Positions 655 through 54,466 of a stretch of 64,000 nt of DNA are shown piece after piece. The notes under the pieces were generated by a model. It saw nothing but the letters and a program-made list of their open reading frames with translations. It was not told the DNA's origin and ran no database searches. Positions within the stretch are counted from its first letter, which is position 1. Each line of letters opens with the position of its first letter. The position numbers and the translations under genes were made by a program. Source of the DNA: a virus. The DNA is taken from positions 86,132 through 150,131 of the IMG/VR virus record IMGVR_UViG_3300025018_000102. One strand, 5' to 3'.

Positions 655-1790
655 TATTCAACAATCGTCTTTGTGCTAAGGACGGCCGCCACGAAGCGGT
701 CTATGTCCACTTGATTGATTTTTGCGGGACCTGTTGCGGTGAGAACAGTCAGTTCTCCTAGGAAAGTGTGGAGGTCTCCGCCTCTTGGTATGCCTTGACC
801 TGCTTGAGCGTTCTTCCCGAGCTTGATGCCTGCAGACTCTAATTCTACCAGATTTGTGGCCTCTATGACAGCCTCATCCTTTGACTTGACCTTGAACGTC
901 CTTGGGACCTGAATAGACACGGTATTTTGGTCTGTGAACAGGTAGGACTTCTCGTAGGTCTGGTTGCCTCCGGCCTGTGTTGGCTTTGGGTTAGATTGAG
1001 GTATTTGAGCCTCAACACCTCCAAGAATGCCTTTTCCTTCGTCAATCTTGTCCCATACAAGCTCCAGAGACTGAGAGGTCTTGGGGTTGATTAGGATTGA
1101 GCCCCCGTTGTCTGGGTCCTCTGTCCGGCCCCAACGGCCCTCTGTGGGCCCATCCTCGCCGAACTTCAGTTTGGAGTTGGCGAAACGGGTGGACAGGTAC
1201 AAGCTGCCCTGCTTGGTGACGACGAACTCAACGCCGTTCAGGCGAGTGAGGGCACGACCACCCTGCTTGAGGGCTCTGGGAGATCCTCCGTCTGTGGGGT
1301 ACGCGTTGCCAGTAGTTTGTGGGTCGTAGAAGTTCTTTGGGTGGGGCCACCAACTGCTAATGTAAGGGGCATCTAGGCTGCCTCCCAGAAAGGACACCAC
1401 GCACCAATCCCCGTCCAACTCGTTTGGGTCAGTCTCGGATAGCGAGGACCTCAACTCAGCCCCAGTGGTCACGTTGGACGTAGGGCGAGGGAGCCATTCA
1501 CAGTAGTCGTCTAGGCCCGAGGGATGCTGCGGAGGAATGACCACGTTACTCAGGACCATGGAGGCAGCGGAGTTGGCCTCTACGATTAGGACAGAGCAAG
1601 TGTGAGCAGACCCGTGAGCATCACTTACTCGGGTAGAATAGATGTTCTTAGGGTCGTCAGATGGAGTGACAGTAAGCACCACGCCCAAAAGAGACCCACG
1701 CATCCTATAGTGGCCATAGTCTTGTCCAGAAAGAGAAAGCCCTGCTTGAATGGGCGTACGATTGGGAGATATGTTGAAGCGGCTACTCAT
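654..1790 (-). CDS. Putative baseplate central spike (gpV/Gp5-like) protein
   Basis: OB-fold-like 'GDWCVVSFLGGSLDAPYI' segment and beta-strand-rich C-terminus; follows hub gene; ATG at 1790 overlaps hub stop. Confidence 0.6.
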   Translation of the reverse strand: MSSRFNISPNRTPIQAGLSLSGQDYGHYRMRGSLLGVVLTVTPSDDPKNIYSTRVSDAHGSAHTCSVLIVEANSAASMVLSNVVIPPQHPSGLDDYCEWLPRPTSNVTTGAELRSSLSETDPNELDGDWCVVSFLGGSLDAPYISSWWPHPKNFYDPQTTGNAYPTDGGSPRALKQGGRALTRLNGVEFVVTKQGSLYLSTRFANSKLKFGEDGPTEGRWGRTEDPDNGGSILINPKTSQSLELVWDKIDEGKGILGGVEAQIPQSNPKPTQAGGNQTYEKSYLFTDQNTVSIQVPRTFKVKSKDEAVIEATNLVELESAGIKLGKNAQAGQGIPRGGDLHTFLGELTVLTATGPAKINQVDIDRFVAAVLSTKTIVE

Positions 1791-8332: not shown

Positions 8333-8407
8333 TGGCGCGCCGGGAGGGATTTGAACCCACTCTTTTTGATTGGAAATCAGCCGTGCTACCGTTGACACTA
8401 CAAGCGC
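8333..8407 (-). tRNA. tRNA-Gly(TCC), partly degenerate stems
   Basis: GCGCTTG...TT-TCC-AA...GGTTCAAATCC...GCCA; mismatches in acceptor, anticodon and T stems. Confidence 0.7.
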
Positions 8408-8486: not shown

Positions 8487-8616
8487 TGGCACGCCTGCTA
8501 AGCGCACCCCTTGGTGCCTCAGGAGGGGATTTACCTTCGTTCTATGAGTCGAAACCAGTTCAGGCCCTTGTTGGCAGTTTTACGTCGATCCGAAGACCTA
8601 CATGCCTAGGACGTGC
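8487..8616 (-). ncRNA. Unidentified ~130-nt structured RNA inside tRNA cluster
   Basis: Ends pair (GCACGTC/GGCGTGC; CTAGG/CTTAG), 3' end reads GCCA, two internal TTCG-capped hairpins, segment resembling the tmRNA 5' end. Confidence 0.5.
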
Positions 8617-8705: not shown

Positions 8706-8706
8706 A

Positions 8707-8809
8707 TCGAGACAATGAGCAGGACTCGAACCTACAAGGGTGCTACCCAACCGGATTTCGGGAGGCTATCCCTAGACCAGTAGCGTTTACCAGTTTCGCC
8801 ATCATTGTC
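8707..8809 (-). tRNA. Atypical class II (Leu/Ser-like) tRNA with 8-bp acceptor stem and hairpin-expanded anticodon loop
   Basis: GACAATGA/TCATTGTC acceptor, D arm GCG-AAACTGGTAAA-CGC, anticodon stem ACTGG/CCGGT enclosing 22 nt, variable arm GGGT-AGC-ACCC, T arm GTAGG-TTCGAGT-CCTGC; no encoded CCA. Confidence 0.7.
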
Positions 8810-8810
8810 T

Positions 8811-8954: not shown

Positions 8955-8988
8955 AAAAAAGAAGGAGCACCGTGTCCGTGCTCCTTCT
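8955..8988 (-). terminator. Intrinsic terminator after tail tube gene
   Basis: GAAGGAGCAC-loop-GTGCTCCTTC followed by T6. Confidence 0.8.
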
Positions 8989-53520: not shown

Positions 53521-53987
53521 TGCCCTACTTGCCAAATCCCAACAATCTCGAGGCCTGGCGGCTTATTAACCTCCCGAAGCCACTGCCGCTACTATTGCAG
53601 TATGGGTACTTAGTAGGCTCCCAGGCAGTTCGGCTGGTCACGGGAGGTGAACCACTGGACACGGGGGACTGGGATATCATGGTGCCCCCAAAGAACTGGA
53701 GCACTCTGTGGAGTGCGGAGGAGTCTTTTCTGGCGGGATACCGGGGGTCATCCACCTATCTTGGTGGCATCCATTTTTCCTTCAATATACCTCCAAGAAG
53801 TCGCCCAGGCGATGGCTCAGCGCCAGATCCCTTCTCGGCCCCCCTTACGGGGTCGGTTGAGGTGGATTTGTTTTCAGCTTACCTAGAGGAGTACCTAGCC
53901 GCCGCTAGCCTTGCGAGGGACAAAACTGTGGTGTTCGCAGTAGATATACCAAAAAACATTGTGTACTCTGCGCGAGCTTTTGGATGA
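53520..53987 (+). CDS. Putative minimal nucleotidyltransferase
   Basis: 'LVGS...GDWDI...VDLF'; coupled to RNA ligase. Confidence 0.5.
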   Translation: MPYLPNPNNLEAWRLINLPKPLPLLLQYGYLVGSQAVRLVTGGEPLDTGDWDIMVPPKNWSTLWSAEESFLAGYRGSSTYLGGIHFSFNIPPRSRPGDGSAPDPFSAPLTGSVEVDLFSAYLEEYLAAASLARDKTVVFAVDIPKNIVYSARAFG

Positions 53988-54466
53988 CCTACAAGACGTT
54001 CCATAAGTCGTTCCATAAGTCCTATCTGGTGCGTAGTAAGTCGCTTCCTCAGGATCTAGCAACCAAGAATGAGCGCCGCGTCCTTCAAAGCACTGAGACT
54101 CTTCGAATCCACATTGACGGAGAGCCTGTGTATGGTAGCCCTCAGGAACTGTACGAAGACGTCGTGCGGCCCATGATGATTGAGACTGCTCTATCCTACT
54201 TTGATGAAATGCAGGGGCCCTTGGACACGAGGCCGGGGCCCCCGTGGTTTACTGGTTGTGAGCGCGCTTACCTTTTGCCCGTCACGTCTTCCGGGGGCCT
54301 CCGCTTCCTGTGGAGGTTTGAGTTCTGCACGATAAACTTCATGACGCACACTTCTAGTGCCTCCCTGCACTATCCTGGTCACCTATTTCACCGCATCACC
54401 ACGCACTCCCCAGAGGACCGGCGTAAAATCTTACAACTTGCTCTCCCTGAGACCCTCATTCCTTAG
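53984..54466 (+). CDS. Hypothetical protein
   Basis: ATGA overlap. Confidence 0.55.
   Translation: MTYKTFHKSFHKSYLVRSKSLPQDLATKNERRVLQSTETLRIHIDGEPVYGSPQELYEDVVRPMMIETALSYFDEMQGPLDTRPGPPWFTGCERAYLLPVTSSGGLRFLWRFEFCTINFMTHTSSASLHYPGHLFHRITTHSPEDRRKILQLALPETLIP

Follow-up and report, generated by a model that had tools for sequence, protein, structure and literature searches.

Full-length tmRNA genes are carried by the mycobacteriophage Bxz1 group and by Bacillus phage G (Hudson et al., 2014; PMC4131195), and tmRNA genes have been recorded in 402 of 18,146 phage genomes (PMC9004378); the latter study also cites ssrA gene fragments in prophages. In mycobacteriophage DS6A, Hudson et al. (2014; PMC4131195) recorded a "TLD only" sequence, for which they proposed a possible role in titrating SmpB, and they refer to Mao et al. 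(2009) for the inhibition of tmRNA by a TLD-like molecule, regardless of whether it is chargeable. This DS6A sequence was the single example of a TLD-only RNA found in the searchable literature. Fragments of approximately 90 nt from the tmRNA 5' end are used by the anti-CRISPR protein AcrIIIA1 of a Twort-like phage (PMC11662646).

Here we describe a 130-nt element from a phage tRNA island. The original prediction was that it is a structured RNA carrying tmRNA-like segments in permuted order, serving as a mini TLD mimic or SmpB decoy or representing a new class of non-coding RNA of tRNA clusters. The reading that we favor, with a probability of roughly 0.7, is that a tmRNA (ssrA) gene borne by the phage was rearranged and truncated within an eroding tRNA island, that the element is what remains of it, and that it is discarded as spacer.

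Setting of the element in a tRNA island

The window, i.e., the whole 64,000-nt stretch of DNA that was analyzed, comes from an IMG/VR virus record of 150 kb, which is 89% complete and has a G+C content of 55%. The genome is that of a myovirus, and the island is localized between its tail-tube gene and a tail-chaperone-like gene. Upstream on the minus strand are a tail-sheath gene, then a 410-aa gene and then a Phi812-type tail-tube gene (9487–9065, minus strand), and a strong terminator-like hairpin of 11 bp followed by a T run (8988–8960, minus strand) was observed directly after the latter. The island is made up of four tRNAs and two odd elements, all of which are on the minus strand and arranged as follows: tRNA-Met (8886–8811), an odd tRNA-like gene of 105 nt (8810–8706), tRNA-Ala(UGC) (8705–8630; Rfam tRNA score of 55.6 bits), the 130-nt element (8616–8487), tRNA-Thr(UGU) (8483–8409; 65.3 bits), which starts 3 nt past the element, and a weak tRNA-Gly(UCC) (8407–8336) reported by Rfam only. 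The tail-chaperone-like gene (8296–7772, minus strand) comes after the island. The sequence originally singled out was recovered letter for letter at 8487–8616 on the minus strand, and its placement between two tRNAs holds according to both ARAGORN and Rfam; the Ala–Thr spacer that contains it measures 146 nt. A search for a sigma-70-like promoter for the island found none.

Two other genes of the island deserve a description of their own. The 105-nt tRNA-like gene at 8706–8810 (minus strand) was missed by both ARAGORN and Rfam. It folds as a cloverleaf (z −1.5) in which the acceptor stem has 8 bp, a D-arm, a hairpin in the variable arm and a good T-arm are present, and the anticodon arm is extended (5 bp, internal loop, 4 bp and a 5-nt loop); CCA is not encoded, and its T-arm is identical at 17 of 17 positions to that of a tRNA-Arg (100 nt, with a long variable arm) in the related phage L300 (L300:4793–4809). 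The tRNA-Gly(UCC)-like gene at 8336–8407 (minus strand) scored 40.9 bits with Rfam and received no call from ARAGORN; mismatches are present in its anticodon and T stems, and it may be a decaying tRNA.

A protein search with the tube protein retrieved the window phage itself, as identical copies, from a number of samples in ENA, Logan and JGI, as well as the relative L300, on a contig from ENA ERZ2485795. The tube protein of L300 is 90% identical and the gene order (sheath of 862 aa, 410-aa gene, tube) is shared; the tube-gene DNA of the two phages is 74% identical, and they are old relatives. After its tube gene, L300 carries tRNA-Ile, tRNA-Met, a full tmRNA and then tRNA-Asp, tRNA-Ala, tRNA-Arg, tRNA-Lys and tRNA-Val. 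The tmRNA gene (L300:3810–4132) has the ARAGORN tag ANDNTPAFAQAA, a G3:U70 pair and a score of 96.4 bits against Rfam RF00023, the cut-off of which is 47. A second contig from ERZ2485795, L321, contains more tRNAs and an HNH-like ORF before the chaperone-like gene. If this contig from the same sample is assumed to adjoin L300, the L300-type island (L300:2924–5300 plus L321:1–1660) holds at least 14 tRNAs, the full tmRNA, small ORFs and the HNH-like ORF. Long variable-arm insertions are found in several tRNAs of this island, namely a tRNA-Arg of 100 nt, a tRNA-Lys of 87 nt and a tRNA-like gene of 112 nt at L300 3563–3674.

Farther away, 53 IMG/VR loci with 35–76% tube identity showed no tRNAs and no match to the element at the site, and no tRNAs were present at the site in a relative whose chaperone is 60% identical; the pattern method returned no IMG/VR relatives of the chaperone-like protein. 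The tRNA island is absent from relatives under approximately 80% tube identity. The large island of L300, taken together with the tRNA-free distant relatives, identifies the site as a fast-changing tRNA island, and the tube–chaperone junction is a hotspot for tRNA gene gain and loss. All of the other copies of the element (at least nine, from ENA, Logan and JGI) were 100% identical over its length, and no variant copy was found.

Folding and origin of the three segments

The idea of a structured RNA did not stand up to folding analysis. The folding-energy z of the 130 nt was only −0.82, and shuffled sequences folded equally well; for the 81-nt 3' part (8567–8487) and the 49-nt 5' part (8616–8568) the values were 0.03 and −0.31, respectively. 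The sole unusually stable feature is a 25-nt hairpin at 8522–8498 on the minus strand, with 10 bp, one bulge and an AAGG loop (−12.8 kcal/mol, z −3.1), which was equaled by 1 of 200 shuffles. The two ends had been said to pair, but shuffling the 146-nt spacer produced a 7-bp end helix in 19% of cases. That the RNA finishes in CCA depends on the boundary, because three further A's separate this CCA from tRNA-Thr; the CCA end is therefore chosen and not given. The internal ACCA that had been pointed out is present at 8515–8512.

Segment A (8567–8532, minus strand) corresponds to a tmRNA 5' end, comprising the acceptor 5' strand, the D-loop analogue and the start of the P2 5' strand. The resemblance of its first 20 nt (8567–8548) to a tmRNA 5' end, which had been pointed out in the original prediction, was borne out by identity to the 5' ends of IMG/VR tmRNAs. 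In IMG/VR, three contigs contain the exact 20-mer. In two of these, ARAGORN calls a tmRNA with the 20-mer as its 5' end; the third locus stops 127 bases later, so that no gene can be called, though the 20-mer is probably the start of a tmRNA gene there as well. The exact 20-mer was absent from 185,579 bacterial and archaeal species genomes, and a relaxed version of the pattern returned 109 loci, mostly standard or permuted tmRNAs. As judged from these matches, the likeness to tmRNA is beyond chance.

Over its full length, segment A is identical to nt 1–36 of the L300 tmRNA at 32 of 36 positions, a score reached by 0 of 500 shuffles, and the agreement extends into the P2 5' strand (14 of 16 positions identical), a strand that is freely variable among tmRNAs. 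By this comparison, segment A is related specifically to the tmRNA of L300. A pattern joining the end of the D-loop to the P2 start of segment A had no match in IMG/VR, and a scan of JGI metagenomes with a shorter D-loop/P2 pattern gave only chance matches inside coding sequence. Segment A is 89% identical to L300, compared with 43% for the third codon positions of the tube gene and 73% for tRNA-Met. Preservation so far above that of neutral sites would imply a recent truncation, a lateral exchange or selection on A: it fits a gene that was constrained for a long time and lost only recently, or an exchange between phages inside the island by lateral transfer, and would also fit selection.

Segment B (8616–8568, minus strand) was recognized by local alignment as a PK1-like piece; it ends in GCC AAC AA, which looks like a resume codon and resembles the start of many tags. 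On the L300 tmRNA, its best local alignment is to nt 41–79, within the PK1 region, and 17 of 500 shuffles scored as well. When 32 distinct phage tmRNAs were considered, the best alignment was in the PK1-to-resume zone for 17, as opposed to 6.8 ± 3.0 for shuffled sequences. The predicted likeness of the upstream part to the PK1/resume region is thus genuine but weak. The identity of segment B to the L300 PK1 region is 0.62, equal to the background seen between tmRNAs that are unrelated. Where true tmRNAs share at least 13 of 16 positions in nt 21–36, their PK1 regions are 0.87–1.0 identical, and no convincing pseudoknot was found in segment B. An identity at background level suggests that segment B is PK1-like only generically, and that segments A and B probably do not go back to one tmRNA copy that was intact until recently. 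The permuted order itself is real: B, which corresponds to a later part of tmRNA, precedes A, the first part. With one informative relative to go by, this order could have arisen by tandem duplication and subsequent deletions, or by successive recombination events.

Segment C (8531–8487, minus strand) consists of 45 nt that include the internal ACCA, the 10-bp hairpin and a terminal CAGGCGU-G-CCA, and has no detectable homologue. Its local alignment to the L300 tmRNA scored under the shuffle mean, and no source for it was found in L300, L321, the rest of the genome, the fetched loci or IMG/VR. Of its last 11 nt, 8 appear to agree with the 3' end that would go with this 5' strand, which is not significant alone.

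TLD-only genes and alternative readings of the element

No Rfam family reached its cut-off over the element when the window and sub-regions were searched with gathering and E-value thresholds. A blastn search against 50,697 phage records gave chance matches of 22–35 nt only, and exact-pattern scans of IMG/VR found none of its junctions or element-specific words. Two YrlA (RF02553) matches, of 21.3 and 18.8 bits against a cut-off of 69, lie over neighboring tRNA pairs and not over the element. As a tmRNA, the element is rejected. RF00023 scored the element alone at 3.7 bits (E 8.2; cut-off 47), and reached 18.6 bits only by borrowing the T-arm of tRNA-Thr. The element has no closed acceptor stem; the best partner strand, CAGGCGU, gives G1:U, G2xG and G3-C with G as the discriminator, position 3 being G3-C70 and not G3:U70. 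It has no T-loop of the UUCRAnU or GGUUCGA type, and the loop of the hairpin by the 3' strand is AAGG or, in an alternative register, GGGUGCG. Nowhere in the whole 150-kb genome does a T-arm precede a strand that is complementary to GGGCCUG. Translation in the frame starting at GCC gives ANKGLNWFRLIERR*, passing straight through segment A, and no tag frame in the element ends in hydrophobic -AA. ARAGORN called no tmRNA in the window or the genome, a full tmRNA being absent from this phage, and an SmpB gene was not found in the phage genome.

The sorting of relaxed-pattern matches revealed TLD-only genes of 78–84 nt in IMG/VR viral contigs. In these genes, which have no mRNA-like domain, a tmRNA 5' motif is followed by a short P2 hairpin, the linker GGAC and a perfect T-arm, and the 7-bp acceptor stem is perfect too. 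A dedicated pattern scan of IMG/VR for such genes returned at least 120 matches; among the matches listed, at least 34 distinct sequences have flawless acceptor stems. Within this set of 34 from the matches listed, G3:U70 is present in 33, the discriminator is A in all 34, and the G1-C72 and G2-C71 pairs are invariant; the T-loop is fixed by the search pattern itself. Compensatory changes were observed in 13 of the 19 predicted pairs of the resulting alignment (A1; examples are L087:5624–5700, L117:1383–1461 and L176:1579–1657, from IMG/VR loci), with covariation in P2 and the T-stem. Some members sit inside tRNA clusters, and ARAGORN called 0 of the 34 genes. The covariance model built from the 34 sequences, R1, detected the "TLD only" RNA of DS6A (JN698994.1:28478–28557) at 63.3 bits and eight bacterial or MAG loci at 56–90 bits (L398, L392, L377, L408, L409, L393, L372 and L343); TLD-only genes are rare in cellular genomes, with 8 true genes among 94 pattern matches. 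As far as alignment and covariation can tell, TLD-only mini-tmRNAs are a family with good covariation, which is common among viral contigs but escapes ARAGORN. This family may matter more than the element, and with it the old idea that phages interfere with trans-translation can be put to the test.

The existence of such RNAs in DS6A and in IMG/VR contigs upholds one half of the proposal of a mini TLD or SmpB decoy; the other half, that the element is one, fails. It is rejected as a member of the R1 family, since it has no T-loop and R1 gave it 12.6 bits with the first 19 nt aligned only, in comparison with 56–90 bits for members and 21.7 bits for tRNA-Ala. A looser proposal would be that the 81-nt unit 8567–8487, composed of A and C, is a derived and uncharged TLD-like RNA, released by RNase P and 3' trimming, which binds SmpB or another tmRNA partner and so damps host trans-translation, as proposed for TLD-only RNAs. 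Precedent for it is provided by the genes just described, common as they are in viral contigs, by the published DS6A sequence and by the inhibition of tmRNA regardless of charging for which Hudson et al. (2014; PMC4131195) refer to Mao et al. (2009). A crude TLD-like layout can indeed be drawn on these 81 nt, a length to be set against 78–84 for the family: GGGCCUG and CAGGCGU form five Watson-Crick pairs, one G:U and one mismatch, the mismatch lying between GGCCUG (nt 2–7 of segment A) and CAGGCG, acceptor positions 4–5 differ from those of L300 in a compensated way, the D-loop analogue is intact, and the hairpin adjoins the 3' strand, after which comes the terminal G-CCA. The high conservation of segment A speaks for this proposal as well. 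The loop at the position of the T-arm, however, is GGGUGCG and not UUCGAAU, so that the D-loop/T-loop elbow cannot form as in tmRNA, and this elbow is what SmpB grips in TLD–SmpB structures. Moreover, G2 is mismatched, G3 is paired with C, the P2 helix is weak, the 81 nt are without excess stability (z 0.03) and no SmpB is encoded by the phage. On balance, we consider the proposal unlikely. Quite unlikely, too, is that these 81 nt are a diverged TLD-only derivative, in which an SmpB-facing 5' D-loop segment together with a CCA-ended minihelix would be excised by tRNA-processing enzymes and would act uncharged; such a derivative might be a sponge for SmpB or RNase R or, by analogy with the fragments used by AcrIIIA1, a tmRNA-fragment cofactor. 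The one observation pointing to it is the preservation of segment A, at 89% vs. 43% at neutral sites.

The stable hairpin brings up a reading of another kind, in which the spacer is a processing or stability element of a polycistronic tRNA precursor: the hairpin and the tRNA-like 5' strand would guide cuts by RNase P, RNase E or an exonuclease, and the tmRNA-derived bases would be raw material and not a mimic. In its favor, the 25-nt hairpin (z −3.1) is separated by 11 nt from the CCA-like end and by 14 nt from tRNA-Thr. CCA is encoded in all four tRNAs of the cluster, which is therefore probably matured by standard tRNA enzymes, and the terminator at 8988–8960 after the tube gene makes it likely that the cluster is a transcription unit of its own, but no promoter-like site was found for it. 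The proposal is also without comparative support, no diverged copies having been found, and most phage tRNA spacers are short, and nothing about this one requires 146 nt; we regard it as rather improbable.

A two-piece (permuted) tmRNA, of which the element would supply one half and tRNA-Ala, or something else upstream, the acceptor piece, is hardly credible and was rejected, for although RF04321 (tmRNA_permuted) aligns with the tRNA-Ala T-arm and CCA, the linker and the 20-mer, it reaches 20.3 bits (E 0.018; cut-off 47) only by using these tRNA-Ala parts, AGAUUCC, the 3' strand of tRNA-Ala, fails to pair with GGGCCUG, tRNA-Ala by itself forms a complete cloverleaf (55.6 bits), the complementary T-arm and strand occur nowhere in the genome, the PK1-like piece is upstream of the 5' strand and hence in the wrong order, and a tag frame ending in hydrophobic -AA is missing.

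A separate RF04321 match, at approximately 54.3 kb of the genome, was also rejected as a permuted tmRNA; it is actually a pair of back-to-front tRNA-like units. Two units in which the T-arm and acceptor 3' strand come before the matching 5' strand are located at G000:C1 ~53,800–54,450 (minus strand) and L319 ~1150–1650 (minus strand). A small hairpin separates the perfect T-arm/3' strand from the matching acceptor 5' strand in the ~54.3-kb units, one of which scores 21.7 bits with RF04321, and a tag-like frame ending in KAA* is found downstream. ARAGORN at a low threshold gave only noise in this region.

The element as a probable ssrA gene remnant among known systems

To return to the reading of the element as the remnant of a tmRNA gene, two observations are central: part of the element is homologous to part of a bona fide tmRNA (32/36 to L300; 0/500 shuffles), and a relative, L300, carries the intact gene at the matching site. 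The presence of an intact tmRNA at the same site argues for a gene remnant rather than a new class of non-coding RNA or a designed decoy. Thus, the tmRNA-like segments in permuted order were substantiated by the comparison with L300, whereas support was found neither for a mini-TLD or decoy role nor for a new class of RNA from tRNA clusters. Also counting for a remnant are the alignment of segment B in the PK1 zone, the missing working parts, the lack of a thermodynamic signal, the non-significant pairing of the ends and the rapid turnover of the island. What counts against it is that segment A is better kept than neutral sites, that the identity of segment B to L300 (0.62) is unlike that expected of one recent copy, that a TLD-like layout can be drawn on 8567–8487, and that all copies are identical.

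In the history that we propose, an intact tmRNA gene would have been cut down to its first 36 nt, now segment A, with the generic PK1/resume-like piece B placed before it, in the wrong order, and the 45-nt segment C after it. The element would be transcribed along with the tRNA cluster, and the RNase P and 3'-processing nucleases that mature tRNA-Ala and tRNA-Thr would discard it as spacer. Being without a T-arm, G3:U70, a closed acceptor stem and a tag frame, it would undergo neither alanine charging nor trans-translation. The element would then exemplify the erosion of a phage tRNA island, with nothing but a 36-nt signature, set among shuffled pieces, left of a tmRNA gene. Motifs resembling tmRNA in tRNA clusters need the test of a relative or of covariance before being called new RNAs.

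Among described systems, the stable RNAs C and D of phage T4 (species 1 and 2) are non-tRNA RNAs of the T4 tRNA cluster that are released by tRNA processing. They are discrete stable species, whereas the element, which likewise lies between phage tRNA genes, is a putative RNA. With the two-piece tmRNAs of RF04321 it has in common that tmRNA parts stand in a non-canonical order; real permuted genes, however, consist of an acceptor piece, a linker and a coding piece, with PK1 after the 5' strand, while in the element the PK1-like sequence comes before the 5' strand and an acceptor piece is missing. With the TLD-only family, represented by DS6A, it shares the 5' motif GGG..UGAA.UGGUUUCGAC, the approximate length of its 81-nt 3' part and a location in a tRNA cluster, where some members are also found, but not the invariant G1-C72 and G2-C71 pairs and discriminator A or the G3:U70 (33/34) of the matches listed. 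Segment A is homologous to the 5' end of the full-length phage tmRNA that L300 carries in the same island; the element differs in being 130 nt long, with no T-arm, tag frame, PK2–4 or acceptor closure. In the tmRNA pseudogenes and ssrA fragments covered in two studies (PMC4131195; PMC9004378), as in the element, a partial gene copy has kept one end and lost the functional parts. Bacterial ssrA fragments are mostly 3' and result from the integration of islands into ssrA, whereas the element is a 5' fragment, belongs to a tRNA island of a phage where an integrase context is lacking, and includes a second piece that is out of order. A derived function has a slim chance of being correct; set beside these systems, the element is most likely the remnant of a tmRNA gene and not a new class of RNA.
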